A stretch of 64,000 bases of DNA from a virus: positions 1 through 64,000 of the IMG/VR virus record IMGVR_UViG_3300045988_178965. The stretch is one strand, 5' to 3'. The first letter of the stretch is position 1. Each line of letters begins with the position of its first letter. The notes beneath the pieces were generated by a model that was not told the origin of the DNA, did no database searches, and saw nothing but the letters and a program-made list of their open reading frames with translations. Positions 15,501 to 64,000 of this stretch are shown in pieces. A program made the position numbers and the translations under genes.

Positions 15501-16348
15501 CTGAGCATGTTCCAGGATACATTCAAGAGCGTAGAAACGTTGACAATTATTTCGACGCACTTGAGTTCTACAAACAAATGCAAATCTATCGTAAGTCTGC
15601 TGGCGTAAATAACTACGAAGCTACAATGGCAAAAGAGAAAGCCAACAGGACAGTTTACGGTGCAGTTGCGTCAGGCCTTGATACAAGACAAGATGTAGAG
15701 TCTGCATATAGTGCACTATCAGATAATGAGAGGGCATACTTCTCATCATTTGTTAATGCAAAAGAATCGGACAGAAATAAGATATCAAGAATTGTTGACG
15801 GTAATAATATCTCTGATATGTACCGCATGTTGTGGGCTAGAAAAGACGCTATTGAAAACGGCGATGATATTTCTGCATTGATTCAGCAAGAAGAACAGGA
15901 TCTAATTGATAACAACCGGTCTGCATATTTAGCGTATAAAAATAGCAAAGACGCAGATATAGGAATCTCATTTAGAGAATACGTCCAAGAACTAAGAGCC
16001 GCATCTTTAATAGAAGAGGCAACAGGTATACCAACAGAAGATTTCTCTGGATGGGATCCGAGAATAGAAATTAAAGATGTAAAACTAAGGGCTCTTCAGT
16101 TGTCAAAAGAGGACGTTAGAGAATATGGATTCTGGCAGTCTGATGAAGACAATTTGGCTAGGCAATCATATCTTCTAAATGAAGATCAGGTAACAACACA
16201 ATTAGGCTCAATAAAAGAAACAAGAGCAAGACGAGAGTTTCAAGAATCACTATTAATAAAAGATCAGTTGATGAAAAGAGGAATATTTGCAAAAGATATC
16301 CGATTCTCAAACACTGGATTCAGTGATCAAAATATAAATATAGGTTAA
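12578..16348 (+). CDS. tape-measure-like protein (1256 aa)
   Basis: Large ORF after the two chaperone-position genes. Gly/Ala-rich hydrophobic stretches (e.g. KMAALAAGYYALDN, LAGFPLAGAMAGGTLAYG, RGAAIGALFALPFLPGALIG) and a long predicted-helical remainder, as is typical of tape measures. Confidence 0.5.
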   Translation: MIASNLGWSAINDYRDRQDSSMAHRRILMDSQTIEENKSEQEARDIVGSVMKYGLTLEAIVLANKALKNKEVQRKAERYVKLSYLADSIRGTKQDALSVFGGGKVTLANLSMNVARAFEELSPFSILRTFNTSHILAPFATAESEFEFSSDLLKAQKRYFKFLSSKYGERELTDADFEAGLKYSKGKLLDASGNTVIQNTRLTLTEFAGTEPGHTATSNYNKILRRHIAVNEGASFFAKKEIGDLSKSVPAHNPFTIIAADKNASIGKEWMKSVVGQAVAQGFNMVNEPLGFLEETGGTLINRDSTLFKMIGKYGRINPNATSESTIKELTTGYAKHGIAKMAALAAGYYALDNASKIIGTDSSGFGHGISEGLATTFLGAKLLYAETVSDRFEEYRQEQEYVAPGSTSLLKLAGFPLAGAMAGGTLAYGRRTLPAAIANDGYIRSTRDAAKESFIFGRSVATLAINTPVQDALAVGTRARRFATRGAAIGALFALPFLPGALIGESSDDIRAEYLEGKDVAIRKNRGWFSSSTPIEGEGVKYFTKNWYQRLMADNKDKILYGDQDTKEDLDPFLSPFDYLRNPYRLEEMHQEDMPYPVWGMDVSMGGWIGRGLQMAFGDAIKPDLINPRMKALTGELQGSGEPAIIPSLSITQNVSNKQMSLIGEGKSTYGELAKYDPNTESANYIVSSGLDFIGLKGWAASGVLKDFGLGIPELKTQYARSGEATNVAKEFEAQNLGGMLGAADVTRRIIPMSADVTGERFNPLSNTVSPEWLPSGGYFNDFSKGAFWDKVENGYDRLPGKGYETWNPELSGVDPNDYPDIHKFEILSDVAFGSNEYYKMYEKMEDLYRRKVAGEETEMSDEDAARFEEIYIQSQERSRKKRFFEYKTEEELEGVSMWGRMLGSIWESTTHNAELSTERLTFFRPAGKLLHQRTAIEDYVKTQLSEGDTALWNKPYEHFIRPFVEDSYKYIDSEHVPGYIQERRNVDNYFDALEFYKQMQIYRKSAGVNNYEATMAKEKANRTVYGAVASGLDTRQDVESAYSALSDNERAYFSSFVNAKESDRNKISRIVDGNNISDMYRMLWARKDAIENGDDISALIQQEEQDLIDNNRSAYLAYKNSKDADIGISFREYVQELRAASLIEEATGIPTEDFSGWDPRIEIKDVKLRALQLSKEDVREYGFWQSDEDNLARQSYLLNEDQVTTQLGSIKETRARREFQESLLIKDQLMKRGIFAKDIRFSNTGFSDQNINIG

Positions 16349-16351
16349 TAT

Positions 16352-21352: not shown

Positions 21353-21361
21353 GAGAAGAAT

Positions 21362-24300
21362 ATGGCAAGATTTACTTTTTCTATCAACGGAATGCTAGAT
21401 TTAGAACCGATCTCATTCGATAAGGTTGATAAATTTTATACAACCCAACACGAATTCCTAAGAGATACCTCGGTTCTATCTTCTAAATCCAGATATAGCG
21501 AGATGCTTCATCTTGCCACATTCGCATTTGATGTTTCAGATGCAAAAGAGGTAGAGAAGCTTAAAACCCTGATAGCTATCTGTAATTCATTTCCATACGT
21601 ATTTATCAGATCAGATGCAATTATTGAAAACCATCTGATGCCTTTAAATCTAGCCATAGGTTCTGGGTACTATATGTATGCACTGCATGAATTCCAGGCA
21701 GAAATGTCATCGACAGATGCAGACCAGGGCGTAGTTACCGTATCCTTAAGATTGCAGATGGTTAACTGGAAGCCGCTGGCTAAAAGTATCAAATTTATCT
21801 CTATTGAAGAGGGCGCAGAGGTTAAAACTAAATCAGGAAAAGTTAGGAATATCTCTGAATATAATGGAGAAGAGGGTGACAGCGTAGTATCTACCGGAAG
21901 CTATGTTAAGTATGTTGACAATCCAGAAGAGTCAAACATTCTTAACTTTATGGTTGAAAAGAACCTTAGCGATGACATTGAAGCTATCCTTAATTCTGGA
22001 CTAAGCCGCTCATTTGAGTTTAATCTTGGATGGCCTCTAGTTATGACAGACTTACAGTTTGATGGAAGATCAAAATCAGATTTCTGCTGGAATCTTGTTA
22101 GACAATTTAGGGTATTAAAAACTGTAGACCTAGACGGATCATTGCAGACAAAAGACGGCAAGAAAACATCACAATCAAACATCTCCGAAGTAACAGAGGA
22201 AAATGTAGAGCGTTATGATGAAACCGGAAGAATTTGGGTTGGCTACGTCAGAGAAAGACTGGCTGGAACAAATGTCAAAGATGGAGACGTAGCGTTGCAG
22301 TCTATAACTGTAAGACGCAGAAATAGATTTGCAAATCAAACGGTTCAAGGGTTTGTATATCCATATGCACAATATTTAGGCCGCTCACCATCAGAAGTTT
22401 TAATTACAACAGCAGTTAATCATACAAAAGGTATGGCATCAACAACGGCTATGCAAGCAGTAAAAAAAGCCGATGAGATGACCAACTATGTCAGAGTCTC
22501 AACACCTGCATTGAAAGGACTTGATGTTCTAGCCATAGAGAATCCATTAGTAAATGGTCTCGGTATTAAATATGCAGTTCTAGACTCATCTCATGCAACC
22601 ACTTCTGGTTCACTAAATAATCTTTTAATAAACAACTTTACATTTATAGAGTCTGACTCTTATGGTGCAATAGAATCCAGCAGGTATGCTCTGGCATCAT
22701 CCGTTAATGGATGGAATGATTCAGCAAATAAAGCACAACGTCTTATTGAAGTTATAGGACAATACAAGGCTCTTAAAAAAGACGGCTCTAGCACATCAGA
22801 ATACGACACTATTATCTCTGTTATCAATAACCGCTTAATTGATGCGTTAAATAGGACAGCTAAGTCTGAATTTCCAGAAGCCAAATCTTTGCAAGAATCC
22901 GATGTTTTCAAAAAGGCAGATGCAACACAAAAATCTGTATATATAATTCAACTATATATGCAGCTAATCTCAGCAAATACCGCATCAGGCTCTGAAGAAA
23001 GAATAACGTTAGAGCGTGTAAGACTACTGGACTCAGAAATAGAATCGCTGTATTTTGAGACCATTACAAACCTTAATCCAATAACAATCAAGGCGCTAAA
23101 AGAAGACCTTCAAAAAGAGAAGAATTGGATTGAAAAGATGGAGGGAAACTATACATCGTTTAACGGTGAAGGTATTCCTGACCTAAAAATAAAAGAAATA
23201 TTTGGAGGTTTAACTCCTACAAAAGAGTATAAAAGCTGGAGAGATTTATCGTCATTCCCATTTATATATGACCAAGGAATTCTTTCTCCAGATAAAGTAG
23301 TAGCGTTTTGGGATGAAAAACTTCCCGAGATTAATAGTCTGCTCGAGGCCACTGGCGCGTTGATAAAAACTGACCTTAATATTTATACTACTGCTCCGGC
23401 CATGAATGACGCTGGTGGTAACTCAACCACTGGTGCATCTGTTATGGTTCAAGATCCTTCTGGCGGAACATCGCCAAAAGGAAAAGCCGATGTGAAATTA
23501 GTCTATACCCGAGAACAATATGAGCGCGATTATAAAGTGAGCACCGGGTCTAATAAAAGACTCTTGCCACTTGAAAACATAGTTGCCTATACAAGACTAG
23601 GTAGAGACTTGCAAAACTTCGGTGGAAGGCATATGGGTTTAGATATGCCAGTACCGGTAGGAACTCCTGTACGTGTTGCCGACGATGGTGTTGTATCAGT
23701 AGCCAAATTTCAGATGAATAAAAATGGTAAGCGCGGATACGGTAACGTAATATACGTTAAGCATGCAAATGGTATTGAAACCAGATATGCCCACTTAAGC
23801 AGAATTCTTGTAAGAGAGGGTTCTCGTGTCGGAAGAGGTCAGGTTATTGGTCTATCAGGTAATACTGGTGGGTCTACAGGTCCGCACTTACATTACGAAA
23901 TAAGAATAAATGGCAAGGTAATTAGCCCTAAAGCATACTATGGTAAAACCACGAATGGTCCAACATCAATAGCAACATCTAGCAAGACGAATTCCTCTTA
24001 TTCTGCTGCAGCATATGCAAGAGGCGGCTCAAAGGCACGCTCAGGCATTATGACCTTAAAAGAGTTTATTGCAGCAGGAGAGAGCGGCGGAAGTTATGAT
24101 ATTGCCAACTGGTATACCGGTAGGAAATTAAATTCTGGCAATAAGGGGTTATCAAACAAGACGATTGCCCAAGTTATGGCTATGCAAAATGCAGGTCAGC
24201 TTCATGCTGTAGGTAAATACCAAACGATACCTGTAACATTAAGGGCTGCTGTACAAGGACTTCGCCTAAATGGTAATACTCCGTTCTCTCCATCAGTGCA

Positions 24301-27256
24301 GGAAAAAATCGGCACATGGCTAATTTTCAATAAACGCCCAGCGCTTGGTGCATACATTAGAGGTGAAAGCAACGATTTAGACAAGGCTCACAAAGAGTTT
24401 GCATTGGAATGGAGATCAATTCCTATGCCTGATGGACGTTCTGCAAGTTCAAGCGGCGATAAAGTTCATTCCGGATATACTCCAGAAAGAGTTAGACAAG
24501 CCTTACTCGCAGCAAGAGCTTCATACGTTAAATCATTGTCTAGTGGCAAATCCAAAGAGCAGGCACAAGAAGAGGCTGTTGCGTCAACAGCTTTAGCAAG
24601 AGTTGCTTCCGGTGAGAATGTATCAGATGTTGCAAATAGCTATATCAACGAGCTATACGCAGGAAGAGAAAAAGATCCTATTGAGGCAGTTGTAGACCCA
24701 GTACCATGGACAGAAGAAATCCAGGCTAAATCTAGACTAGAGAATTTCGTCAAGGATCTTAATAGGGGTATTCAAAAATTAATACCGACATATAAGGTTT
24801 ACATGGTTCACGGTAATGACGAAAATAGTTTAATTAATTTAATCAATTATCGTCAACATGCATCATACTATGAAGTTCCTGCAGTTAGAAATATTAGAGT
24901 TGAAATGGCAAATCAGGATAACCCAGTTGCCGTTGCAACATTCGAAGTATTAAACGCTCTGAATACAGCATCTGACCCTAAAGAAATCAGAACATTAAAG
25001 TCTGAGAATATAGATATACGCTCTCTAAATTCTGACGCTGCTAGAATAGTTGCGATGGACCAAATTAGACTTAAAGCTGGTAACAAGATTCAGATTAGAA
25101 TGGGTTATGGAAACGACCCAAATAAACTATCCGTTGTATTCAACGGCATAGTAACAGAGTCTGACGGCGGCGAAGTTCTAACAATCGTTGCAGAGGGTTA
25201 TGGTAGAGAATTACAAAACGAGCAACTCTTCATTGGAGACGTAGTTCCAACATTCTCATTCCTATCAGATATCGATAACCTATATATATCCGCAGCCGTT
25301 GCCAAAGTTCTTAAATCTGCTAATCTAGATAGTTTCGGCAGAAACCCTAGATGGTTTGCAGACAATAATGACTTTAGAGACGTAAGAGGTATGAGCAATG
25401 AAACAGCGGCATCAACTCTTGTCGGTGATAGTGGCATAGGATTTAGTAATTCTCTTTGGAACTCCCAACTAGACGAATACTTCTTCTACTCTGCTAAAGG
25501 TGCAACAGAAAGTCTGGAAAACTTCTGGTTAATGAACGTAGATATGGCAGACAGGTTCTTCGTGACAAGTCTAAAAGATCTATTCCCATTTTCGTTGAAT
25601 GACTTCTTCTCAAACTTTAATGTCGTCAATAAGACTGTTTGGGACGTTCTAACAACAGGAAGAAGAATGTTTCCTTCATCTATTCTTCTTGTTAAGAATA
25701 TAGAGGGACGTTCAACAACCTTCTCTGGCATTAAAGAGCAAATGATGATAGGCAAAGAAAAGCCAACATCATTAGCCGCAGAGTTTTTATCAAAAATACA
25801 GAAGAAAGCTGATTTCAAGAAAGAAGCAAACGAGGCACTTGCAGGAGACACAACTGGCATTGGTAATTCATATGTAGAAAATAATATGAAAGACAAAATC
25901 AATGTCATAGGCGAGCAGACATTAAAATCTAATGGCTCAGATGTAATAGACCTATTGGATGCCGCAAATGCGGATAAATACGTGGATGTTTCATCATATG
26001 TTCCGGCAACCAATTTCCATATGTTTAACAGTTCTTATAATCTGATTTCTAATCAATTGAAATTAGATCAAAACTGCATAACAGGTGCTAAAGTTGAATA
26101 TAACGGCGATCCAGAGGATTTTGGATACGGAGAAAATATATTCGATATGAAGGCAAATGGTGGGCTAAAGGGTTCACTCGCTAAATTTGGATATATCAAT
26201 GACAACTCTATTAGCTCTGTAGGAATGGCAATTAAAACTGCTCAAGGTTATCTATTAGAAGAATTAGAGAAAATGTATAACGGTGCAGTTATTGTCACTG
26301 GAAATCCAGATATACAACCTGGTGATTATGCATTTATCCAAGATGATCTTAGAAATATGTCTGGCGTAATTAAATGTCGTGAAGTTCAACATGTATTTAC
26401 AGAGTATGATGGCTATGTGACAATTATTACACCAGGTATGTTTGTAGAACCATCAACACATATGTATTCAAATCTATACATGAAACTTGGCATATTCATG
26501 AATTTTGTGTCTACAGCAGCATCAGAGTATGCTCAGGTATCCAGTGCAGAAACAATTCCTGGACTTATCTATGAACAAACCGCATTCCAGCCTACTGATC
26601 TTGGTGCATCTGTGTATCTGCTTGGAGTTGGTAACGTTGCCGTTGGTGGACTGACAGGCGCATTCGTATATAGCTCTGCTAGTCGTATAGCTGGTGGTTC
26701 TTTAATAAGTAGAGCATCAAGTGGTTTAAGTCTTGCTGCTAGGGCCGGAAAAGCTGTCGCTGGTGCTGGTTGGGTTCGCTCTTTGGCACACACAGCAATG
26801 GCATTCGGTTCTTCGGTTGGGTCTAAAACACTACAGGCGCTACCAAGAGTTGCAAGAGTAATCTCAGCAGTACGTGGAGTTGTAGCCGGTGGTAGGGCAG
26901 TAGCAACAGCCGCTATGGGATTTGCAGCTGGTGGGTTTATTGCAACAGCAGCGGTCTCAGCACTTTTGGTAGTTTTAGTTTATGGTGCATTGGCAATGGT
27001 TCAGAATTTAATTGAATCATATGCACTCAAACTTGAAATGAGACACAGGGCACTTATGAAGTTTCCAGTAAAAGTATATGGACAAGAATATACGGCTGGT
27101 CTCATAGGATGGAATGATACAGAGACACCATTAGGATTGCAGATAGAGACAGTAAAAGAAACTATTAGGGCTTTAGGCGACATCAACGAGGCTACAACTA
27201 GGGCCGGATATGATGGTTCCCCATATGCCTTATACTTTAAATTAGCTACGGATTAA
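21362..27256 (+). CDS. multidomain tail hub/lysin protein (1964 aa): M23 peptidase, lysozyme/transglycosylase-like domain, hub-like region and hydrophobic C-terminus
   Basis: M23 motifs: GGRHMGLD (H757) ... YGNVIYVKHANGIETRYAHL ... GPHLHYEI (H842/H844), nt ~23564-23941. Next, AAGESGGSYD...AVGKYQTIP (nt ~24044-24490), resembling E-S...G-x-Y-Q peptidoglycan glycosidase domains of tail proteins. Later, IRLKAGNKIQIRMGYGN...FNGIVTE and VTGNPDIQPGDYAFIQD resemble gpD/gp27-type hub proteins. Gly/Ala-rich transmembrane-like segments lie near the C-terminus. Confidence 0.7.
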   Translation: MARFTFSINGMLDLEPISFDKVDKFYTTQHEFLRDTSVLSSKSRYSEMLHLATFAFDVSDAKEVEKLKTLIAICNSFPYVFIRSDAIIENHLMPLNLAIGSGYYMYALHEFQAEMSSTDADQGVVTVSLRLQMVNWKPLAKSIKFISIEEGAEVKTKSGKVRNISEYNGEEGDSVVSTGSYVKYVDNPEESNILNFMVEKNLSDDIEAILNSGLSRSFEFNLGWPLVMTDLQFDGRSKSDFCWNLVRQFRVLKTVDLDGSLQTKDGKKTSQSNISEVTEENVERYDETGRIWVGYVRERLAGTNVKDGDVALQSITVRRRNRFANQTVQGFVYPYAQYLGRSPSEVLITTAVNHTKGMASTTAMQAVKKADEMTNYVRVSTPALKGLDVLAIENPLVNGLGIKYAVLDSSHATTSGSLNNLLINNFTFIESDSYGAIESSRYALASSVNGWNDSANKAQRLIEVIGQYKALKKDGSSTSEYDTIISVINNRLIDALNRTAKSEFPEAKSLQESDVFKKADATQKSVYIIQLYMQLISANTASGSEERITLERVRLLDSEIESLYFETITNLNPITIKALKEDLQKEKNWIEKMEGNYTSFNGEGIPDLKIKEIFGGLTPTKEYKSWRDLSSFPFIYDQGILSPDKVVAFWDEKLPEINSLLEATGALIKTDLNIYTTAPAMNDAGGNSTTGASVMVQDPSGGTSPKGKADVKLVYTREQYERDYKVSTGSNKRLLPLENIVAYTRLGRDLQNFGGRHMGLDMPVPVGTPVRVADDGVVSVAKFQMNKNGKRGYGNVIYVKHANGIETRYAHLSRILVREGSRVGRGQVIGLSGNTGGSTGPHLHYEIRINGKVISPKAYYGKTTNGPTSIATSSKTNSSYSAAAYARGGSKARSGIMTLKEFIAAGESGGSYDIANWYTGRKLNSGNKGLSNKTIAQVMAMQNAGQLHAVGKYQTIPVTLRAAVQGLRLNGNTPFSPSVQEKIGTWLIFNKRPALGAYIRGESNDLDKAHKEFALEWRSIPMPDGRSASSSGDKVHSGYTPERVRQALLAARASYVKSLSSGKSKEQAQEEAVASTALARVASGENVSDVANSYINELYAGREKDPIEAVVDPVPWTEEIQAKSRLENFVKDLNRGIQKLIPTYKVYMVHGNDENSLINLINYRQHASYYEVPAVRNIRVEMANQDNPVAVATFEVLNALNTASDPKEIRTLKSENIDIRSLNSDAARIVAMDQIRLKAGNKIQIRMGYGNDPNKLSVVFNGIVTESDGGEVLTIVAEGYGRELQNEQLFIGDVVPTFSFLSDIDNLYISAAVAKVLKSANLDSFGRNPRWFADNNDFRDVRGMSNETAASTLVGDSGIGFSNSLWNSQLDEYFFYSAKGATESLENFWLMNVDMADRFFVTSLKDLFPFSLNDFFSNFNVVNKTVWDVLTTGRRMFPSSILLVKNIEGRSTTFSGIKEQMMIGKEKPTSLAAEFLSKIQKKADFKKEANEALAGDTTGIGNSYVENNMKDKINVIGEQTLKSNGSDVIDLLDAANADKYVDVSSYVPATNFHMFNSSYNLISNQLKLDQNCITGAKVEYNGDPEDFGYGENIFDMKANGGLKGSLAKFGYINDNSISSVGMAIKTAQGYLLEELEKMYNGAVIVTGNPDIQPGDYAFIQDDLRNMSGVIKCREVQHVFTEYDGYVTIITPGMFVEPSTHMYSNLYMKLGIFMNFVSTAASEYAQVSSAETIPGLIYEQTAFQPTDLGASVYLLGVGNVAVGGLTGAFVYSSASRIAGGSLISRASSGLSLAARAGKAVAGAGWVRSLAHTAMAFGSSVGSKTLQALPRVARVISAVRGVVAGGRAVATAAMGFAAGGFIATAAVSALLVVLVYGALAMVQNLIESYALKLEMRHRALMKFPVKVYGQEYTAGLIGWNDTETPLGLQIETVKETIRALGDINEATTRAGYDGSPYALYFKLATD

Positions 27257-52870: not shown

Positions 52871-52909
52871 AACCCCGGCACCAATTAAGGTGTCGGGGTT
52901 ATTTTTATT
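52871..52909. terminator. bidirectional rho-independent terminator between convergent gene blocks
   Basis: AACCCCGGCACC-aattaa-GGTGTCGGGGTT, a 12-bp stem with one G-U. Followed by ATTTTTATT on the plus strand and preceded by the complement of TTGTTTTG for the minus strand. Confidence 0.75.
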
Positions 52910-55644: not shown

Positions 55645-55989
55645 TTATCGAACAATAGATCCTAAAATTTTAATAAGCATTGCTGCATCGCGCTTATGTT
55701 TATGAGCATCCAATTTTCGCTGATGTCTTTCTAAAACGGAGACATCATCCTCTTTATCGATAATGCTTGCCATAGTAATAGCGCCAATGAGCTTCAAGAA
55801 CTCTTCAAAGTCTTTTTGATCGCCATCCATATCCTCGCAATCAAACACTTTTGTTGGAACAACTTCTACAGGCTCGTCATCTTGGACTGCTCTTAAATAT
55901 CCAAGTCCGTTAACAGCTTTACTTCGTTCTGCGGCTTTATGAGCCGACATAATTTTGGCGATATCGCCAGGGGATACGTTTAAAATCAT
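55645..55989 (-). CDS. hypothetical protein
   Basis: 114-aa ORF immediately downstream of nrdA, with a 1-nt overlap. Confidence 0.45.
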   Translation of the reverse strand: MILNVSPGDIAKIMSAHKAAERSKAVNGLGYLRAVQDDEPVEVVPTKVFDCEDMDGDQKDFEEFLKLIGAITMASIIDKEDDVSVLERHQRKLDAHKHKRDAAMLIKILGSIVR

Positions 55990-58319
55990 TATAGTTTACA
56001 CGCTACACAATCGTCTTCATCGTCTGTGTTAGAATCATCCGGAATCTCAGTAATATTACCTTCCATAATATCAGAAGATTGACCATCATAGTTATTATTA
56101 TAATACATGGTTTTACCTCCTAATAGGTAATGCAGGTAAATATCCCAAGATACAACTGATGCGGGGACCTTGTTGTTAGGATAATTCTGTTTATTGTAAT
56201 ATGTATTAACAGAGATAGCCTGATCGGTATATCTCTGAATAACAGCATAAGTTTTAATTAATGCCTCATTTGAAGTATGATCCCAAATGCGGTCATATTT
56301 ATCTTTGAGTCGCGCCAATTCAGGCACTACAAATTTAGCTTGTCTATTCTTGCCGCCCTTAGAAATAATCAATTCTCGTATTGGTTCAATACCATTAGTA
56401 GTACCAGAACCGGAAATCTTAGCACTTGTTTCAGCAGGGAACATAGCAATCATAGATGCATTTCTAACACCATGTTTAGCAATTCTAGCACGGAGACTTG
56501 TCCAATCTAATTTCTCCTCATAATTAAATAAAGAGTTATACATAGGAGTAGTCATATCTTTTGGAAGTTTACCTTCCGCCCATAGCGTATCTTTGAATGC
56601 ATCACAGGCGCCACGTTCTTCAGCAAGATTAACTGAAGCACTAATAACTCCATAGGAGAAATGTTGCATCCATTCATCTAACAGTTCATAGCAATTGGAA
56701 TATTTTTTATCATTCTTAGCTAACCAATATGCAAGACCTGTAATACCAATGCCGATAGGTCTAAATAATCTGTTATGTTCCTCAGCAGCCGGGAAAGGAT
56801 GCTCTTGGAAATCTAGCAAATTATCAACAGCACGCATAGTTACATAAGCTACACGTTTCAAATCTTCGGGATTATCAAAAGCCCCAAAGTTAATACCACT
56901 CAAATTACATAAAGCAATCAATCCCTCTTGCTTGTATGTCTTACTTACAGGATCATAAGTTCGTGTAAGTCCTTGAGTTGGAAGAACAATTTCCTGGCAG
57001 AGGTTACTCTGCTTAATGGGATATTTGTCGGTATTATACATAGAATGGCGATTAATATTATCCGCAAACCCCACATATACTCGACCAGTACCAAATCTTT
57101 CTTCCACCAATAGGTCCATTAGGTGTCGTGCATTAATAGTGCCAACAGCCTCGCCTTTATTCATGGCTCTGGTGTAAGCATCATAAAAATGAGAATCAGA
57201 ACAGCTAGAATAAAAAGCATCATAAACCTCTTTAGAAATGTGTGGAGAGAACAAGCCAATATCTCTATTTTCTGCGGCGGCCTTAAGCATGAATCCGTTT
57301 AAAAATATAGAGTGATCAGAATGTTTCATTGATTCAGAATCCTTCTTCATATTGTTTTTATAAAGAAGTATTTCTTCAACATCTGGGTGCAGACCCCACC
57401 AGTTAAATGTTAGCGAGCCCTTCCGAATTGAGCCTTGACTGCATGACAATGCGCTATACTCAATAGATTTAGCGTGATAGAGAGCTCCACTATTTACAGC
57501 GGCACCATTTCTAATTGCCGCATTACGTTCTCTTAATTTAGATGAACCAATACCAAGGCCAGCTCCAAGTGTTGCATATTTACGGGCAGCAGTTGCTACC
57601 TCGCCAATAGAGTCGATAGAGTCATCAGATTCAATCAGAACACATGAACTAAAACTACGAGTAGGCTTTCTCAGATTTGCAATATGGGGAGTCGGTACAT
57701 TTACCCGTCCAAGAGACATATTGTCATAATGTTCTTTAACAAAACTTAGGCGATCAGTATAAGCATCGCCATCATCATTGATAAAATACATCATTGCTGC
57801 AACCATATACGAAATCTGTGGAGTTTCGTAATATTCTTTGGTTTTGGCATTCTTCGCTAAATATTTAGCCTCCCATTCGACAGCACCAGAGATAGAATAC
57901 ATCATATCTCTATTGTGATCGATTTGCTTATTCAGCCACTCTATTTCATCCTCAGAGTATTTTTCAAGAATAATCTTATCATACACTCCAAGTCTTGTAT
58001 TCTTCTTAATAACGGAAAGCAGATTCTTAGGCTCAAAATCGCCATAGACATATTTACGCATATTACAAAGAAGAATACGGCCAGCCACAATAGCATAATC
58101 AGGATGCTCTTCATCAATTAAATTATTAGCACTGGTTAACAATGCCCCATTAATTTCTTCAGTAGTTATCCCATCATAAAACATGATGTTGCTATTTACA
58201 GCAATTTCAGAAACAGAAACGTTATCCAACCCTGCACATACAAATCCCAGGAAAGAATTAATACGTTCAGGGTTGTAAGGAACAACATCACCATTTCTTT
58301 TGGTAACATTGAATCCCAT
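55989..58319 (-). CDS. nrdA: ribonucleotide reductase class Ia, alpha subunit
   Basis: N-terminal ATP-cone (VTKRNGDVVPYNPERI). Motifs FSSCVLIES, QSNLCQEIVLPT (catalytic Cys/Glu) and MFPAETSAKISGSGTTNGIEPI. C-terminal redox Cys pair CVACKL. Confidence 0.92.
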   Translation of the reverse strand: MGFNVTKRNGDVVPYNPERINSFLGFVCAGLDNVSVSEIAVNSNIMFYDGITTEEINGALLTSANNLIDEEHPDYAIVAGRILLCNMRKYVYGDFEPKNLLSVIKKNTRLGVYDKIILEKYSEDEIEWLNKQIDHNRDMMYSISGAVEWEAKYLAKNAKTKEYYETPQISYMVAAMMYFINDDGDAYTDRLSFVKEHYDNMSLGRVNVPTPHIANLRKPTRSFSSCVLIESDDSIDSIGEVATAARKYATLGAGLGIGSSKLRERNAAIRNGAAVNSGALYHAKSIEYSALSCSQGSIRKGSLTFNWWGLHPDVEEILLYKNNMKKDSESMKHSDHSIFLNGFMLKAAAENRDIGLFSPHISKEVYDAFYSSCSDSHFYDAYTRAMNKGEAVGTINARHLMDLLVEERFGTGRVYVGFADNINRHSMYNTDKYPIKQSNLCQEIVLPTQGLTRTYDPVSKTYKQEGLIALCNLSGINFGAFDNPEDLKRVAYVTMRAVDNLLDFQEHPFPAAEEHNRLFRPIGIGITGLAYWLAKNDKKYSNCYELLDEWMQHFSYGVISASVNLAEERGACDAFKDTLWAEGKLPKDMTTPMYNSLFNYEEKLDWTSLRARIAKHGVRNASMIAMFPAETSAKISGSGTTNGIEPIRELIISKGGKNRQAKFVVPELARLKDKYDRIWDHTSNEALIKTYAVIQRYTDQAISVNTYYNKQNYPNNKVPASVVSWDIYLHYLLGGKTMYYNNNYDGQSSDIMEGNITEIPDDSNTDDEDDCVACKL

Positions 58320-58320
58320 A

Positions 58321-58635
58321 TTATTCGCCTTCTTGATTTAAATATTTAACCAATTCAATAACTTTGGCTCGAAGATCTTTGAACTCTACATGCTCATAAG
58401 AGCCTGTATCATCACGGTCAATAAAGATTTGAGGGACAGAGCGCGGCTCTGGCTTACCCATATCTTCAAACCGCTTCTTCATTTCATCCATTTCAGCTTT
58501 ACCGGCATCAACATAAGTTTTTTCAAAATAGAATCGCTTATGCTTATCAATATATTTAGTGCCGAGATTTTCTAAGATGGATGTAGCCTGTACACATTGT
58601 GGACAGCTAGATTTGGAATAAATCAAAATTTTCAT
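58321..58635 (-). CDS. glutaredoxin/NrdH-like redoxin
   Basis: 104 aa with the active-site motif SCPQC near the N-terminus and a downstream VPQIFI motif. Located between nrdB and nrdA. Confidence 0.8.
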   Translation of the reverse strand: MKILIYSKSSCPQCVQATSILENLGTKYIDKHKRFYFEKTYVDAGKAEMDEMKKRFEDMGKPEPRSVPQIFIDRDDTGSYEHVEFKDLRAKVIELVKYLNQEGE

Positions 58636-59096
58636 TGACTTTTCTCCGTGCTATATTTGTTAAACGCGGATAGAATCTCTCCATAATTGGTTTGAGACTT
58701 ATCAATAATCCCACGTTCATAATCTGTCTTCTCTGCTTCTTGCGGAGCCACTTGCTCTTTTTCTTCACCATTCCAAGCTGTAACCCAAGGAATAGGATTC
58801 TTAGTAACAGATGGAATACCACATAGTTCTTCTAATGGCGGTAACCCATATTTCTTTAGTCTTGAGGTGGCCAAATAACACAAATACTCTTCAAGAATAG
58901 ACTGGTTAAATGCAAAGATTTCGCCTTCTTTGAAAAGATATTTACACCATTCAAGCTCTTCTGTTATAGCGTCACGCCATATTCCCTCCACTGCACGTTT
59001 AACCTCGTCTTCTTCAGAGACCATCAAAAAGTCAATATCGTCAACAGGTAAAATGCTTAGAAGATTATTTGTAATCGCCACATGAATGTTCTCATC
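58632..59096 (-). CDS. nrdB: ribonucleotide reductase beta subunit, exon 2
   Basis: The reading frame is open upstream of the track ORF's GTG and reads DENIHVAITNN.., which continues exon 1 (..ARIIKLINR|DENIH). Together these reconstitute the second iron-ligand motif R-D-E-x-x-H. The spliced and intein-free product would be about 378 aa, versus about 376 aa for E. coli NrdB. Confidence 0.85.
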   Translation of the reverse strand, partial: DENIHVAITNNLLSILPVDDIDFLMVSEEDEVKRAVEGIWRDAITEELEWCKYLFKEGEIFAFNQSILEEYLCYLATSRLKKYGLPPLEELCGIPSVTKNPIPWVTAWNGEEKEQVAPQEAEKTDYERGIIDKSQTNYGEILSAFNKYSTEKSQ

Positions 59097-59845
59097 CAGT
59101 AATGTTCAATAGGGTTCGCTACTTCCCTACCAGCTTATTAAGCTTCTGCATATCGCTATGCAGCTCAGACTATATCATTATCTCCGTATTGGAGATATCT
59201 GGCTTTTCGAGTGCCAATAGCTTGCACCCTACGCCTTTCGGCTAGTCGTTGCTCTACTTTTATTCGATTTAGGAAATTTGCCGTATTTTTCTGTAATATG
59301 GCTCCATCGTTTATGCCCTCTTATAAGAGAAACATATCTAGGATGTAAGGAATATAGCGACGCTATACTTTCGTTATCATATCCAGAAAGAAGTAATTCG
59401 CAAATCTTTTCAACATCAGGCTCAGTCAATTTTGACATAGCGTTTCTTGAGCCTAAATTTGTTTTAATACCGATTCGAAATGCATGCTTAAGATTTTCAG
59501 ATTTAGTAACTATTTCTAAATTAGACAAATCATTATTAGTCTTATTACCATCTATATGGTTAACCTCCATGCCAGGAGGTATATCGCCAATAAATGTTTT
59601 AACAACTAGTCTATGAACTAAACCAAGTTTAGAGCCCAGCATATAATACCCGGCCTTTGTCATACAATGTTTCATAAACTTGTTACTAATTTTTGAATAA
59701 ACACGCCCATCGGTGTAAACAATATATTTTCCTATATCTTTATATTTCATAGTTGTAAAAATAGATCAGGATTGTCTACTAGAGATGTCCCCTGAGTTAA
59801 CCAGATTTTCGACTAGGGTCGCCCCTAGAAGCCGCCATATTTTTA
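59097..59845 (-). mobile_element. group I intron interrupting nrdB (749 nt), carrying an HNH endonuclease ORF
   Basis: The 5' exon ends in U (..AACCGU|UAAAAAUAUGGCGG), which can pair with the internal GCGG guide to give a U-G wobble. The intron ends in G (..ACUG|GAU). GNRA-capped hairpins CUAGGG-GCGA-CCCUAG and CUGCAUA-GCGA-UAUGCAG. GAUAUAGUC matches the conserved group I S element, and a P7-like AGAC/GUCU pairing is present. Confidence 0.8.
59229..59750 (-). CDS. HNH homing endonuclease (intron-encoded, I-HmuI-like architecture)
   Basis: NUMOD4-like N-terminus (YIVYTDGRVYS). HNH core HRLVVKTFIGDIPPGMEVNHIDGNKTNNDLSNLEIVTKSENLKHA. C-terminal helix-turn-helix-like segment. Confidence 0.85.
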   Translation of the reverse strand: MKYKDIGKYIVYTDGRVYSKISNKFMKHCMTKAGYYMLGSKLGLVHRLVVKTFIGDIPPGMEVNHIDGNKTNNDLSNLEIVTKSENLKHAFRIGIKTNLGSRNAMSKLTEPDVEKICELLLSGYDNESIASLYSLHPRYVSLIRGHKRWSHITEKYGKFPKSNKSRATTSRKA

Positions 59846-61405
59846 ACGGTTAATGAGCTTGATAATACGTGCAAGTCCAGGTAATTTACCCATTTGTCCA
59901 AAAATAAAGCTACATGCAAAAGAAACCTGGAACCTGATAGACTCTAAAGCGTTAGCAGTATGCAATGCAAGCCATATAGCTCTTACAGCATCAATACGCT
60001 GGCATCTGCCCTCGTAATAATCTTGAACCTTTTGGATAGCATCATCATAGTATTTACAAATACTATCTTTACATTGAACAATTTCCTGAATATCCATAAC
60101 AGTGTCCAACGTCTCTTTCGGATTAACAAAAGATTGTTGGATGATATGAGTATAGGAGAAAGAATGTAAGCAATTACCGGTAACAGAAGGAATACCTTTA
60201 TAGCGAATAACAAATGCGCCGGTAGGAACAGTTAAACAATAGACTTTGCCTTCATATTGCTCATAGGTTTTCTCAACAAGGTCACCACGAACAGTATCTT
60301 CATCACTAACAAATAGAATATATCCACCTTCTTCTTCTTTAAATGTAGAATGAATTCCAGACATCAAAAGTAATGCTTGAATATCATCAATAATTTCTTT
60401 ACGCTCAACCCAAAGGTTATTTTCACCAGACTTCTCAACCATATTTTTAATTAAGCCAAGAAGCTGATAACCTTTAAGGTAAGTCATCGAAGAAAGAGGC
60501 AATACATCAGTAAGGCGATCACAATAGGCATCTTTAATTGCTCCGTCTAATTGAAATTCAATGCGGTCATCTAGTACAAAATTTGGTTGCGCCAGATTTG
60601 ATAACAGATGTGCGGCGTATTTGTTTCTTCCATAAAAATGAAGCTCATCAGGAATATTTTCATCTGTTTTAAGATGATATCCAAGAATGGTTGAATATAT
60701 TTTAGCCGCAGTTATTGCATCAAATTCGCCACTAAATTCTTCATCTTCAAAAGCAGTTCCAGTCAATGGTAAACTAATCAGTTCATGTGGTTCAAAATTA
60801 TCCGCTTCTTCAAAAGCAAAAGAATTCGAAGTAATGAATGGCATTCGATGAGCTTTGGTCACGAACTGTTCAAAATTGCCATCAACAGATTTAAAACGAA
60901 TAAGCTCTTCGTTCTTATCATAAATATGAATCTTTTCAGGGCGAGTCCAATACAAGCCTCTATTGGTAGAGCGATACTGCGCAACCATAGTTTCCACGGT
61001 TACATCTTTGATATCGAGCCATCCCTTATCAGTAAGAACTTCAGTCCCTTCAGCCAAACACTCAAATAGGGACCATGTTTGAATAACACATTCAAGACTT
61101 GGATCGGCAACAGCGGGATTAAATACCGCAGTAGGAGCACGGCCCATAATGGAATCCAATAAGATTTGACGCTTAATATTAGAAATAACAATATGCTCTT
61201 CAGCCTTTGTGAGTAGGGGGAAATTGGTCCTATCATTAGTCATATCAATTTCCTCTGGCCTCCAAATCTTTTCGAGCTGCATTGTAAATAGATCTAAGAT
61301 AACCTTATATCTAGGGTTGTCAAAGCGTTGGACCGTAGCTCCTTGGCTGCGGTCCAAAAATAACGTTTTAGGAAACAATTCGTTTCCAAATACTGTACCT
61401 GTCAT
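59846..61405 (-). CDS. nrdB: ribonucleotide reductase beta subunit, exon 1 (includes an in-frame intein)
   Basis: Start taken at the ATG at 61405 (MTGTVFGNELF..), preceded by AAAGGA; the TTG at 61462 in the track ORF is unlikely. Motifs: WRPEEIDM, LLDSIMGR, WSLFE|[intein]|CLHSFSYTHII (first EXXH plus the radical Tyr), SFACSF, and IIKLINR at the exon end. Confidence 0.88.
60173..61060 (-). mobile_element. intein (296 aa) inserted in the first EXXH iron-ligand motif of NrdB
   Basis: Block A CLAEGTEVLTDKGW begins directly after the Glu of WSLFE. Block B is T-x-x-H (VTKAHRM). The C-terminal blocks read VYCLTVPTGAFVIRYKGIPSVTGN|C, with a terminal Asn and a +1 Cys. The penultimate residue is Gly rather than His. 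Removing it restores FE-CLH-SFSYTHII. Confidence 0.82.
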
Positions 61406-61610
61406 ATTAATTATTCCTTTTGTAATTATTGTAATAGGAACATCTGAAATTGCATTTCGCAATTAAAGGACGGTTTGCAAAAACCGTTGCATCCTGCAGG
61501 CGCCGGCCGCGGGATGCATGAATTCACCTCATTCTTAAATTTGGAACAAATTTAAGAATTGATGTATCACGAACCTCGATTCGTATAGTAAAAACAATAT
61601 TGTCAAAGAT

Positions 61611-61627
61611 CGGAAGGAATTCTTCCG
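61611..61627. repeat. CGGAAG-N5-CTTCCG hairpin repeat, copy 1
   Basis: gtcaaagatCGGAAGgaattCTTCCG. The conserved 5' flank (caaaga/caagg) is shared with copies 2 and 3. Confidence 0.8.
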
Positions 61628-61895
61628 CTTTGGGCCCGGCCTCACCTGGGGCCCAAAGGATCTGGATCAGGACGCAGTCCTGAAATTATTCTCTAGAATA
61701 ATTATCTAAATATTAATAGGCCTAAGCCCTTAAAGATAGAAGACCATAGAATCATCTTGACTTCGACAGAGTCTAGTCAACGAGCCACACGGCTTTAACA
61801 TGTTAGAATACCTTCTAACATGTTAAAATTAAATATACCATCAGCGTATATTTAATTTTATAGTCAAAGTATACTCATCCTAGGATGACAAAGAC

Positions 61896-61912
61896 CGGAA
61901 GGTATGCTTCCG
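61896..61912. repeat. CGGAAG-N5-CTTCCG hairpin repeat, copy 2
   Basis: gacaaagacCGGAAGgtatgCTTCCG. Confidence 0.8.
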
Positions 61913-62035
61913 TAAATCCGGACAGGACCAGATCCTAGTCCTTCCGGACTCCGTCGGACCCTTCGGGACGACGGGCGCATTATTTTGGTAAAATAATGCA
62001 AGTTTATATTAATGGACCTCAATCCATTTCAAGGT

Positions 62036-62052
62036 CGGAAGGCATGCTTCCG
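62036..62052. repeat. CGGAAG-N5-CTTCCG hairpin repeat, copy 3
   Basis: ttcaaggtCGGAAGgcatgCTTCCG. Confidence 0.8.
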
Positions 62053-62270
62053 CGAGGACGGGTGATCCCGGCCTTCGACGCAGCTCTGCAGCTCCGAATT
62101 ACCGCACGGAATTCGGACAGAGCTATTGGGTTTTTATAACAATCCTAAAATTGTATTGCCGACTCTTCCCTGGTCGGCCCGGGTGAAAGGAAAATCATCA
62201 TGCATTGTACTTAATTTAACTAAATCAAATACCTGGAGCTTAATCCAACGTCGCAATTATATTTTTATTT

Positions 62271-62759
62271 TTATGTGGCATTGCGATCAACCACACTTCT
62301 TTGTTTTTGTTCTCTATAACGCTTTGCCCTAATCTCCCTAGCTTTCTCTAAAACTGGATTTTCAGGATTCTTCATTATAGAGTTAAAATCATATTCGATG
62401 TCAGGATAAGGAACTGAATCTATAATAGCCTTTAATTCTTCCTTACTCTTAGGGCATTCTGATTGGAGTATTCTAACAAGTTTGATGCCAGATTCTTCGG
62501 CCAGCAAATCCTTTTTCTTGTCCTTGAACTGCTGCCATCTAAAACCATTGGCATCTTTGTGAAAGTGTTCAATAAATTCAACATGCTGCCGGCCATCCAA
62601 TTCTATAACTATTCCCATTTCTTTCACAAAACAGTCATATCTCGTCCCATCTGGAAGACAAGCTTCATATATAACATTGCATGTAGGATAAAGCTGACAT
62701 AGATATTCATAGATAATACGCTGCTCATTTGAGCCCCTATTATCGAACCCCATAACCAA
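62271..62759 (-). CDS. PD-(D/E)xK-superfamily endonuclease (DUF559/Vsr-like), possible free-standing homing endonuclease
   Basis: 162 aa. The motif RYDCFVKEMGIVIELDGRQHVEF matches the D...(I/V)E-x-D-G-x-x-H signature of DUF559/Vsr-like nucleases. Basic C-terminal tail. Confidence 0.55.
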   Translation of the reverse strand: MVMGFDNRGSNEQRIIYEYLCQLYPTCNVIYEACLPDGTRYDCFVKEMGIVIELDGRQHVEFIEHFHKDANGFRWQQFKDKKKDLLAEESGIKLVRILQSECPKSKEELKAIIDSVPYPDIEYDFNSIMKNPENPVLEKAREIRAKRYREQKQRSVVDRNAT

Positions 62760-63069
62760 TGCCCTGGATATTGTTTAATTGGCCATGAGCTATGCCGTCA
62801 ATAATGCTTCCCAATCCATTATCATAAAAGAATTTACGATAAGCTTCAAACGCCTTATCATCATCAACTCTTTTAAAATTGTGGGTAGCAAATTTCCATA
62901 TAGCGTCTTTGTCGATTAGCTCATTGATATAGCAGGCGTTATATACCTTATCTACAATCAAGGCGACTTGGACGCCATCATCCTCAAGTACAGCTACAAC
63001 AACCTGATGGTCGAAGCTACCCTCTACATTGAATCCCATTCTTTCAGGGGCCATATGCACTATCTTCAT
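62740..63069 (-). CDS. hypothetical protein
   Basis: 109-aa ORF that overlaps its neighbours on both sides. Confidence 0.4.
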   Translation of the reverse strand: MKIVHMAPERMGFNVEGSFDHQVVVAVLEDDGVQVALIVDKVYNACYINELIDKDAIWKFATHNFKRVDDDKAFEAYRKFFYDNGLGSIIDGIAHGQLNNIQGIGYGVR

Positions 63070-63367
63070 CTGAATCCTTTTCTAAACAATCTTTTTTAAT
63101 CTTGCATCTAATTAATATATATGTTTGCTCAATGAGAAGAAGAAATGTAACTAATGCTAGTATACCCAATATGAAAATAACAGGCGACATCAATAGTAAT
63201 GGCCAGGGGATAAATGAAGCTTCACCAGCAGTTTTTAATAATACTATTGGGAATATACCGGCAGTGAACCCAACGCCAATAAGTTTTAAATGCGAAAATG
63301 AAAATTCATTTTCATCTAGAGCGAGTTTGACTTTTCTGTTTTTACTTTTATTTGAACGAACTTTCAT
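63044..63367 (-). CDS. hypothetical membrane protein (two hydrophobic segments)
   Basis: 107 aa. Hydrophobic segments LKLIGVGFTAGIFPIVLL and LLLMSPVIFILGILALVTFLLLI. Confidence 0.45.
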   Translation of the reverse strand: MKVRSNKSKNRKVKLALDENEFSFSHLKLIGVGFTAGIFPIVLLKTAGEASFIPWPLLLMSPVIFILGILALVTFLLLIEQTYILIRCKIKKDCLEKDSDEDSAYGP

Positions 63368-63377
63368 ATCTTAGTCC

Positions 63378-63980
63378 TTAGAAATTATCAGGTATCATTT
63401 TTTGTATTCCACAATAACTGTGGTTTAAACAAGCAGAACATTTCCCTGGGTTTCCGCCAGAAGTAGAATCAGAATTTATGAATTTAATAGCAATTTCTTT
63501 TAAATGACCATCTGAAAAATTGGGCCTTTTGGTTACACTAACATTTGAATTAGGAGTCCATCCAAATGGAACTCTGATATCGTGTATTGTTTTAATAGTA
63601 ATACCAATATCCTCTATATGTTTAACAACAGCCATTGTTCTTGGGTTATTATAAGCATACATAGGATTGTTCCTATTATCCTGATGGAAAGGCGTTAATA
63701 GAAATATTTCAATACCATCATCCATCAGTAATACGAGATCGATTACAGTATGAAATGTTTTTCTTGGTTTTCTACCATAAGACCAAAATATAAGTTCGTC
63801 GTTTATAGCGCCGTTGGAATGATAAACCCTATCCGATATTTTGTCTAAAATTTCAGTAAGAAATCTGCGCAAAGATGCTTTATATGACTCTACACCTTCA
63901 TCTTCATTGGGAAGTATCTTTTTGATTTTACGTTCAAAATAAAGAATAGGTGCATTACTAGGTCCGTTCAAATCAGACAT
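63378..63980 (-). CDS. hypothetical protein with a C-terminal CxxCx5C cluster
   Basis: 200-aa ORF with an ATG start. The C-terminus reads GKCSACLNHSYCG. No other Cys in the protein, and no confident family assignment. Confidence 0.5.
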   Translation of the reverse strand: MSDLNGPSNAPILYFERKIKKILPNEDEGVESYKASLRRFLTEILDKISDRVYHSNGAINDELIFWSYGRKPRKTFHTVIDLVLLMDDGIEIFLLTPFHQDNRNNPMYAYNNPRTMAVVKHIEDIGITIKTIHDIRVPFGWTPNSNVSVTKRPNFSDGHLKEIAIKFINSDSTSGGNPGKCSACLNHSYCGIQKMIPDNF

Positions 63981-64000
63981 ATAGATTTTAATGGCTTCAT

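Follow-up and report, generated by a model that had tools for sequence, protein, structure and literature searches.

Structure of the nuclease-nrdB spacer

The present analysis concerns the first 64,000 nucleotides (positions 1 to 64,000; hereafter the window) of the IMG/VR virus record IMGVR_UViG_3300045988_178965, and within it a hairpin-packed spacer that precedes nrdB, a gene of the ribonucleotide reductase (RNR) operon. The phage is an uncultivated myovirus, with a tail sheath present and a capsid only remotely similar to those of Bacillus jumbo phages. The spacer occupies positions 61406-62270 of the minus strand, between the stop codon of a homing-nuclease-like gene and the ATG of nrdB, and is free of open reading frames (ORFs). 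The flanking genes are all encoded on the minus strand: the nuclease gene, nrdB, an HNH gene located in an insertion of nrdB, the C-terminal part of nrdB, the glutaredoxin gene and nrdA. The spacer is situated in a replication and nucleotide-metabolism module, with genes for a primase-helicase and a PD-(D/E)XK nuclease a few kb upstream of it. The immediate neighbours are the following:

62271-62759, minus strand: upstream neighbour, a 162-aa homing-nuclease-like gene with matches to homing/HNH endonucleases in PHROG
59843-61405, minus strand: downstream neighbour, first part of nrdB with an intein-like insert, Pfam Ribonuc_red_sm

The most likely start of nrdB is the ATG at 61405, which is accompanied by a ribosome-binding site (RBS) and the conserved sequence MTGTVFGNE and is seen as the start in all relatives; the length of the spacer is therefore 865 nt. 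The first-pass annotation had let the region begin at 61463, and this boundary has been moved to 61406. Its statement that no credible ORF is present holds, the longest being 68 aa and none being intact in relatives.

The same annotation had described an unusual concentration of perfect hairpins, and this is real. Within 61463-62270, perfect hairpins with a stem of 5 bp or more number 28, and the coordinates that had been quoted are confirmed. The whole spacer (61406-62270) contains 19 perfect hairpins with a stem of at least 6 bp and a loop of at most 12 nt, compared with 3.07 ± 1.76 (maximum 9) in 500 dinucleotide shuffles. The density is also far above that of the rest of the window, in which the median 808-nt stretch holds 4 such hairpins. 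Stems of at least 8 bp number 7 (0.21 in shuffles), out of only 25 in the entire 64 kb. Two 15-bp hairpins that had been described as abutting do so, at 61794-61827 and 61824-61860. The claim that almost every nucleotide belongs to an inverted repeat was overstated: perfect hairpins with stems of at least 6 bp take up 49% of the bases, the local fold pairs 65% of all bases, and the longest single-stranded run between hairpins is 22 nt. The RNAfold z-scores are -9.9 for the gene-sense strand and -10.5 for the antisense strand. Hairpins spanning at most 50 nt account for -277 of -306 kcal/mol, i.e., about 90% of the folding energy, and the spacer is a chain of separate local hairpins with no global fold. 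Its GC content is 42%, compared with about 36% in the surrounding window, and palindromic hexamers are 2.4-fold more frequent than expected (32 vs 13.3), as the hairpins themselves would produce.

Tandem modules and their elements

The spacer is built of five to six diverged tandem modules of ~140 nt, all co-oriented with the genes. The order of elements within a module is fixed: hairpin B, an R-Y-C-U-U(U) box, hairpin A, a UAAUAU/UAUACU-like box, hairpin C and hairpin(s) D. Hairpin B has a stem of 5-8 bp and a loop usually of 5 nt (YWURC), often in the form CGGAAG-N5-CUUCCG, and the TA-rich hexamer lies 22-24 nt downstream of it. Hairpin A, with a stem of 5-7 bp and a YNAG loop closed by G, follows the pyrimidine box after 0-8 nt (about 22-23 nt in modules L002_351 and WIN_644). 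Hairpin C is long and AT-rich (9-15 bp, loop of 3-7 nt), and the GC-rich hairpin D occurs once or more per module. A covariance model, R1, was built from an alignment of 20 modules. The mean column identity in this alignment is only 44%, but neither the AGG of the A loop nor the C..C of the box varies. The features of the spacer, in the order of transcription of the flanking genes, are listed below, with the E values of the R1 matches; the clades and relatives named are introduced in the next section.

62127-62178, minus strand: module 0, R1 match with E = 2e-4
62158-62178, minus strand: hairpin B0, GCCGAC-N9-GTCGGC, the most conserved element of the clade, 92-94% conserved even in clade II
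62139-62154, minus strand: hairpin A0 of module 0, loop UUAG-G, followed by UAUAAAA
62000-62052, minus strand: core of module 1, R1 match with E = 2e-12; U-A, U·G and C-G found among orthologues
62036-62052, minus strand: hairpin B1 of module 1, CGGAAG-CAUGC-CUUCCG, followed by an ACCUU box
62011-62028, minus strand: hairpin A1 of module 1, AAUGGAU-UGAG-GUCCAUU, followed by UAAUAU
61951-61999, minus strand: tail of module 1, hairpins C1 and D1
61977-61999, minus strand: hairpin C1, AT-rich, 10-bp stem and 3-nt loop; the loop ACC is inverted to GGT in L003, L011 and L012
61951-61974, minus strand: hairpin D1, GC-rich; relatives have unrelated GC-rich hairpins instead
61862-61912, minus strand: core of module 2, R1 match with E = 4e-8
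61896-61912, minus strand: hairpin B2, CGGAAG-CAUAC-CUUCCG, followed by GUCUUUG, flagged as terminator-like
61875-61888, minus strand: palindrome or hairpin A2 of module 2, UCAUCCUAGGAUGA, followed by UAUACU
61794-61860, minus strand: the two abutting perfect 15-bp AT-rich hairpins, with orthologues in L001, L003 and L004
61704-61757, minus strand: degenerate module 3 (…GGUCUUCUAUCUUUAAGGGCUUAGGCCUAUUAAUAU…), recognised from the alignment; weak R1 match with E = 0.16 at the expected spacing
61628-61703, minus strand: three perfect hairpins in the local fold, at 61684-61703 (9 bp), 61667-61683 (7 bp) and 61628-61658 (10 bp, GC-rich)
61557-61627, minus strand: core of module 4, R1 match with E = 1.4e-9
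61611-61627, minus strand: hairpin B4 of module 4, CGGAAG-AAUUC-CUUCCG, followed by AUCUUUG
61568-61585, minus strand: hairpin A4 of module 4, UACGAAU-CGAG-GUUCGUG
61488-61559, minus strand: tail of module 4, hairpins C4 and D4
61531-61559, minus strand: hairpin C4, AT-rich, 13-bp stem; the loop UUC is inverted to GAA in L016
61488-61518, minus strand: hairpin D4, GC-rich, a polylinker-like run of palindromes; relatives have a different GC-rich hairpin here
61406-61487, minus strand: nrdB-proximal (sixth) module, the last ~45 nt highly conserved in clade I
61470-61487, minus strand: B-type hairpin of the nrdB-proximal module (local fold), followed by a CCUUUA box
61448-61464, minus strand: further hairpin of the nrdB-proximal module (local fold)
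61412-61442, minus strand: conserved UUCCU…AGGAA stem predicted over the Shine-Dalgarno (SD) sequence of nrdB, which it could sequester

In the window R1 gave four significant matches and one weak match, all on the minus strand of the spacer (62178, 62052, 61912, 61757 (weak) and 61627) and spaced by 126-155 nt; nothing significant was found elsewhere in the 64 kb. In 164 kb of sequence from relatives, all matches with E < 0.01 were located in the corresponding spacers, on the sense strand, and included modules outside the training set. The B-type hairpin CGGAAG-N5-CTTCCG occurs 3 times in the window, with 0.01 expected, and with its tail it is confined to a single locus in each of five complete-length (~180-kb) relatives.

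Two further observations concern the nrdB-proximal part of the spacer. The conserved sequence AGAUGUUCCUAYUAYAAUAA (61412-61445, minus strand), just upstream of the nrdB SD, contains a possible mini-ORF of five codons (M-F-L-L-Q/L-stop) with no evident RBS of its own. Positions 61488-61527 contain overlapping restriction-type palindromes of 6-8 bp: CCTGCAGG, GGCGCC, GCCGGC, CGGCCG, CCGCGG, ATGCAT and GAATTC. A synthetic polylinker at 61492-61527 was considered and rejected; the run is natural, since the relatives differ at this position and no vector matches it.

Conservation of the array among relatives

Homologous spacers could be collected from contigs drawn from independent IMG/VR, ENA and Logan assemblies. 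The order nuclease-spacer-nrdB is found in at least 20 independent contigs of ~170-190 kb, all from uncultivated myoviruses. The 180-kb contigs, for example IMGVR_UViG_3300011914_000001 and ERZ773010 NODE-4, derive from human-gut samples. This number of contigs, together with the lack of similarity in blastn searches against phages and against plasmids and vectors, refutes the possibility, raised by the first-pass annotation, of an assembly or vector artefact. In clade I (nuclease at least 82% identical to that of the window) the spacer measures 574-865 nt and is hairpin-dense, as it is in clade II (nuclease identity ~70%, spacer of 624-896 nt). Clade III (nuclease identity ~64%) has a less structured spacer of 381 nt. 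The distant clade IV has no nuclease gene, and its spacer of ~230 nt contains one canonical intrinsic terminator, with a 13-bp stem and a U-tract, immediately upstream of the nrdB RBS (L026:3900-3955). In this clade nrdB can therefore be expressed only by read-through or antitermination. Given the tight packing of phage genomes, a conserved gene-free stretch of 0.6-0.9 kb is rare and implies a function.

At a finer scale the locus is highly variable. Close relatives (the window, L001, L002, L003 and L004) differ in the presence and order of whole modules. Comparison of L056 (a contig from the Logan assembly SRR35529386) with positions 55989-64000 of the window further identifies the locus as a recombination junction. 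The two are mosaic: glutaredoxin is 100% identical, the region across nrdA, the glutaredoxin gene and 3' nrdB 93% and the rest of nrdB 90%, whereas the nuclease side is 82% identical and the spacer is of the L001 type. No exact match to the long hairpin was obtained when viral contigs were searched. The most conserved 23-mer of the clade matched once among 185,579 bacterial and archaeal genomes, in a high-GC metagenome-assembled genome of Solirubrobacterales, most likely by chance.

Covariation and renewal of the hairpins

The stems covary. In helices A and B, 10 of 13 pairs show double-sided changes and 88% of the cells are paired, a level that was approached in none of 500 shuffles and in no slid register; in hairpin A alone, 6 of 7 pairs covary. 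Orthologous hairpins change in sequence and keep perfect complementarity. Thus, in L001, L003 and L004 the stems of the orthologues of the 15-bp AT-rich hairpins differ in sequence but pair without a mismatch (…AUAUAC/GUAUAU… vs AUUUGAAUCUAC/GUAGAUUCAAAU vs AUGAUCUAC/GUAGAUCAU) around a conserved GCUUWUG loop. GC-rich hairpins occupying the same position in sister genomes are unrelated in sequence. Over all spacers, the distinct perfect hairpins with a stem of 6 bp or more number 137, compared with about 8 that have one internal mismatch. Moreover, in two hairpins whose stems are identical between genomes the loop is exactly inverted: ACC/GGT in one and UUC/GAA in the other, where the inversion separates the near-identical L002 and L016. 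Loop inversion and multi-base compensation in one step are footprints of template switching during replication (PMC8794818). DNA template switching may rewrite one arm of a stem from the other and occasionally invert the loop, and we propose that the perfection of the stems and their fast turnover are due to this process. The array is real, conserved and organised: its motifs recur, its stems covary, its modules share one orientation and footprints of template switching are present in it.

A rival explanation is that the spacer is a largely non-adaptive by-product, in which palindromes would accumulate and be renewed by error-prone break repair or template switching beside a homing-endonuclease gene and be tolerated without being used. 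The perfect stems, the unrelated GC-rich hairpins at the same position, the inverted loops and the recombination mosaicism all fit such an origin, as does the adjoining gene, whose homing-nuclease family invades RNR genes. The 162-aa protein is 40% identical to a 'homing nuclease' that splits the gene of the RNR alpha subunit (nrdA) in Acinetobacter phage ME3. This annotated homing nuclease (L058, 79316-80139) is the closest homologue from a cultured phage, and its location inside a split nrdA indicates that the family repeatedly associates with RNR genes; searches of Pfam and PDB sequences with the 162-aa protein matched nothing useful. The clade that has no nuclease gene also has only the 230-nt spacer. 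However, the invariant AGG, the C..C and the fixed order of elements persist across paralogous modules that are ~44% identical, and the module period of 126-155 nt is conserved. Clades that differ by 15-30% in their flanking genes keep a spacer of 0.6-0.9 kb within compact genomes, and the gap beside the homologous nuclease of ME3 is unstructured (z = -0.6). We therefore regard a by-product without use as the least probable of the explanations considered here.

RNA leader or DNA element

The reading that we favour, with a probability of roughly 40%, is that the spacer acts as a transcribed, non-coding, cis-acting structured leader or intercistronic RNA of the nrdB-glutaredoxin-nrdA operon; its transcription, its binding partners and its effect on nrd expression are what we infer from the sequence. 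Among the roles suggested by the first-pass annotation, a processing, stability or terminator array of the nrd operon comes closest to the evidence. The modular array is co-oriented with the genes and ends at the nrdB RBS, its stems covary and its single-stranded motifs are conserved; canonical terminators, however, are not enriched. A protein or nuclease sponge, a further suggestion made there, is a possible role. Several features point to the gene-sense strand. The inner five pairs of hairpin A, read on this strand, comprise 82 Watson-Crick pairs, 18 G·U pairs and no A·C or other pairs, and a path from U-A through U·G to C-G can be followed among orthologues. Each of the five aligned blocks has a slightly more stable fold on the sense strand, and the invariant A loop, nAGG(U/A), reproduces the RBS consensus of the genes of this phage. 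We read hairpin A and the boxes as RNA signals, and hairpins C and D as generic stable stems whose form is set by DNA template switching.

A number of observations weigh against the leader reading. Of the 18 G·U cells, 10 are the loop-closing pair, and since the sequences are also related, the independent G·U events are few. Fold energies are nearly equal on both strands overall, and over all spacers no asymmetry of G·U and A·C is seen at helix ends. GNRA and UNCG tetraloops are rare on both strands, and stable RNA tetraloops are enriched on neither. The C(UUCG)G loop to which the first-pass annotation had drawn attention is present, but on the plus strand, antisense to the flanking genes. Depletion or asymmetry of U-tracts on the sense strand was sought as well, and its absence is counted against an RNA; internal single mismatches, about 8 in number, are too few to judge the strand. 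The predominance of perfect over mismatched hairpins is unlike that of typical functional RNAs, and in 23 of the 137 hairpins the loop measures 0-2 nt, too short for RNA to close. The loop inversions mean that processes at the DNA level shape the hairpins, and template switching can mimic covariation (PMC8794818). Finally, the analogies with boxA and STAB-SD drawn below are tentative ones, based on consensus sequences.

Alternatively, the hairpins may act in DNA, as a palindrome cluster serving as a replication origin, a single-strand initiation zone, a cruciform or a recombination hotspot. The perfect Watson-Crick stems fold equally on both strands, loops of 0-3 nt are numerous, and more GNA-type triloops lie on the template (plus) strand than on the other (12 vs 3). 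Loop inversions occur, long AT-rich perfect palindromes adjoin GC-rich ones, the locus lies among replication genes, and the spacer is a mosaic junction, as in L056, which combines the glutaredoxin gene of the window with an L001-type spacer. Positive signs of the origin or cruciform role that had been proposed in the first-pass annotation were nevertheless lacking. The spacer has no iterons (its only direct repeat is of 14 nt) and lacks an AT-rich unwinding element; no DnaA box occurs even if one mismatch is allowed, and the GC content of the spacer exceeds that of its surroundings. Stem sequences are not conserved, which makes binding by a sequence-specific initiator unlikely, and stems of 6-15 bp are short for cruciform extrusion. 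Furthermore, all modules are oriented with the genes, the invariant loop motif equals the SD consensus, and hairpin A contains G·U but no A·C. Taken together, a DNA element is an unlikely explanation, albeit one with somewhat better prospects than the other rivals of the leader.

Searches for known families and signals

No match to Rfam 15 at gathering thresholds was obtained in the whole window, and a scan of 61300-62400 by E value gave only two matches at chance level (E = 0.27 and 0.65). A search for tRNA and tmRNA found none. The first-pass annotation had suggested a large ornate RNA of the GOLLD/ROOL type. This is not supported: there is no Rfam match, the hairpins are local only, and the presence, absence and reordering of modules among close relatives would not be tolerated by a long-range tertiary fold. 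The array shares with GOLLD, ROOL and OLE RNAs a comparable size (0.6-0.9 kb), the non-coding nature and, for some of them, an association with phages. Those RNAs possess conserved long-range helices, junctions and pseudoknots, whereas in the array local hairpins follow one another in a linear chain and the modules are shuffled.

Regulatory signals of known kinds were likewise not enriched in the spacer. Intrinsic terminators amount to 3 weak sites, with 1.7 expected, and only the B hairpins have U-rich tails on the sense strand (at least 5 U in 8 nt). The form of real terminators in this phage, with clear U-tracts, is shown by a textbook bidirectional intrinsic terminator at 52874-52905 (AAAACCCCGGCACC…GGTGTCGGGGTTATTTTT), located at the convergent junction of the plus-strand structural module and the minus-strand replication and nucleotide module. 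Sites resembling sigma-70 promoters number 7, with 4.9 ± 2.4 expected; the modules have no sigma-70-like -35 element, the putative -35 position reading RYCTTN. T4 late (TATAAATA) or other recurring promoter words are not enriched. The spacer contains no NrdR boxes and no conserved small ORFs or start codons downstream of AGG. CsrA-type GGA sites, MotA boxes, rolling-circle nick sites, a topoisomerase IB CCCTT site, CRISPR-repeat mimics and a decayed tRNA array were each considered and rejected, as motif or spacing was inconsistent across modules.

These results also bear on a likeness to the promoter-early stem-loops (PeSLs) of T4-type phages, which carry sigma-70 or MotA-type promoters, are dispersed in hyperplastic regions and flank ORFs (PMC2839356, PMC4122927). 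Both the PeSLs and the modules are short composite cassettes of a large myovirus, with a stem-loop and a TA-rich box at a fixed distance, and both undergo indels and modular gain and loss between close relatives. The spacer could be a set of stem-loop and promoter cassettes without ORFs, or cassettes driving tiny small RNAs, hairpin B being a weak terminator and TAATAT/TATACT the -10 element. The distance of 22-24 nt between stem-loop and hexamer, the U-rich tails confined to the B hairpins, and the gain and loss of whole modules, as predicted by PeSL-mediated shuffling (PMC4122927, PMC2839356), agree with this. On the other hand, the -35 element is missing and promoter-like sites are at the expected number. 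PeSLs are dispersed, whereas the array occupies one locus in each of five ~180-kb genomes and occurs nowhere else in the 64-kb window; it lacks an ORF and has the additional hairpins A, C and D in each unit. The B hairpins also do not compare with the real terminators of this phage, which have clear U-tracts (~52.87-52.91 kb), and the invariant AGG falls between the putative -35 and -10, where promoters are unconstrained. An array of PeSL-like cassettes is, in our opinion, decidedly improbable.

Proposed function of the putative leader

Two known systems offer the closest analogies for a structured leader RNA. Lambda nut sites and the antitermination leaders of rrn operons contain a boxA and a boxB hairpin, and rrn leaders protect long untranslated structured RNA from Rho (PMC3177189, PMC2800207). 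In the array, a single-stranded pyrimidine box (CG-R-Y-CUUU-R) similarly precedes, by no more than a few nt, a short hairpin whose loop is conserved, and the array would be placed on the putative transcript ahead of a region needing read-through. The boxA consensus reads CGCUCUUA or UGCUCUUUA, and the likeness of the array box to it is a lead and not a test. Like boxB, hairpin A stands beside the box and has a characteristic loop, YNAG-G with the invariant AGG. The array differs in that the leading CG of its box belongs to the stem of hairpin B, and in having five or six copies instead of one or two. No cognate N-like protein is identified, although no search aimed at one was made, and most small proteins encoded nearby match no family. 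The second analogy is STAB-SD, a single strong GGAGG-type site near the 5' end of an untranslated leader, in which 5' hairpins also have a stabilising effect (PMC4113751, PMC3997798). Here, too, a long 5' untranslated region would contain an SD-like purine motif remote from start codons, the invariant AGG agrees with the RBS consensus of the phage, and no start codon is conserved downstream. In contrast to STAB-SD, the motif of the array is weaker, nAGG(U/A), is placed in a hairpin loop and recurs every 126-155 nt.

The REP/BIME elements of enterobacteria resemble the array as mosaic strings of palindromes in transcribed intergenic space (for the array, presumed to be transcribed), with a composition that varies between strains. 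REPs are a dispersed, sequence-conserved family with hundreds of copies, whereas the hairpins of the array are unique in sequence and confined to one locus of a phage, the only recurrent one, CGGAAG-N5-CTTCCG, being restricted to that locus. The array lacks the defining features of GOLLD/ROOL RNAs, PeSLs, intrinsic terminator arrays, REP/BIMEs and classical origins; by analogy, its mode of action would come closest to that of a regulatory or protective structured leader whose modules are nut- or STAB-SD-like.

The following mechanism may be proposed for such a leader. Near-continuous pairing would leave no long single-stranded stretch, and Rho as well as scanning or 5'-exonucleolytic RNases may thereby be kept off ~0.8 kb of untranslated RNA. 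Each module would display two signals, the pyrimidine box R-Y-C-U-U and the hairpin with the SD core (YNAGG) in its loop, between variable and very stable hairpins. These SD-mimic hairpins and pyrimidine boxes are putative binding sites for 30S subunits, in a STAB-SD-like manner, or for elongation factors, in a nut-like manner. The bound subunits or factors could control read-through into nrdB, its stability and its translation, and the terminal stem of the last module could mask the nrdB SD. The terminator located before the nrdB RBS in clade IV fits this logic of read-through at the junction. A stronger version of the leader reading, namely a new class of phage cis-acting RNA in which tandem modules of ~140 nt, each with a pyrimidine box and an SD-mimic hairpin, recruit 30S subunits and/or Nus-type factors, is put forward only tentatively and we consider it rather doubtful. 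Such recruitment could make the leader resistant to Rho and RNases, or turn it into a sponge for ribosomes or factors during infection, while the hairpins would be continually rebuilt by template switching.

Other features of the window and its relatives

The nrdB gene (58632-61405, minus strand) carries two interruptions. The first is an intein-like insert that keeps the reading frame (…SLFE/CLAEGTEV…VTGN/CLHSF…); the second, between two parts of nrdB, is a 0.76-kb insertion with an HNH endonuclease ORF (59229-59750). No Rfam group I intron was matched in the nrdB insertions. The relative L056 has an uninterrupted nrdB of 674 aa without the HNH insertion. The structural module contains three consecutive huge ORFs (1256, 1666 and 1964 aa) at 12578-27256, and others of 1186-1350 aa are present elsewhere. 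Another ORF-poor stretch, ~1.1 kb long, is seen in two relatives (L010:820-1790 and L008:1110-1650) ~6-7 kb past window position 64000. It holds 2-3 tandem copies of a structured unit of ~200-230 nt (AAAAUCGGUGRAGG…AAUACCGA, …GUAGAGCRUAGA…, CUAnnGGAUAAAAAGCCnnUAG), which folds far better on the gene-sense strand (-276 vs -227 kcal/mol) and has no Rfam match. Its neighbours are a LAGLIDADG-like ORF and a DnaE-type HHH_6 fragment, and for this reason the stretch possibly represents introns of a split polymerase gene, or else a new non-coding RNA.

Significance

No described counterpart of a tandem array of five or six modules set in perfect, rapidly renewed hairpins was found in the literature. 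If the spacer is indeed a leader with repeated modules binding ribosomes or factors, it would represent a new viral way of controlling or protecting the ribonucleotide reductase operon, and the leader would form a new family for RNA databases. Whatever its function, the locus offers 137 distinct perfect stems, unrelated GC-rich hairpins in the same position and two inverted loops. With these features, the template-switch model for how hairpins arise and are maintained can be tested directly in a system that evolves fast.

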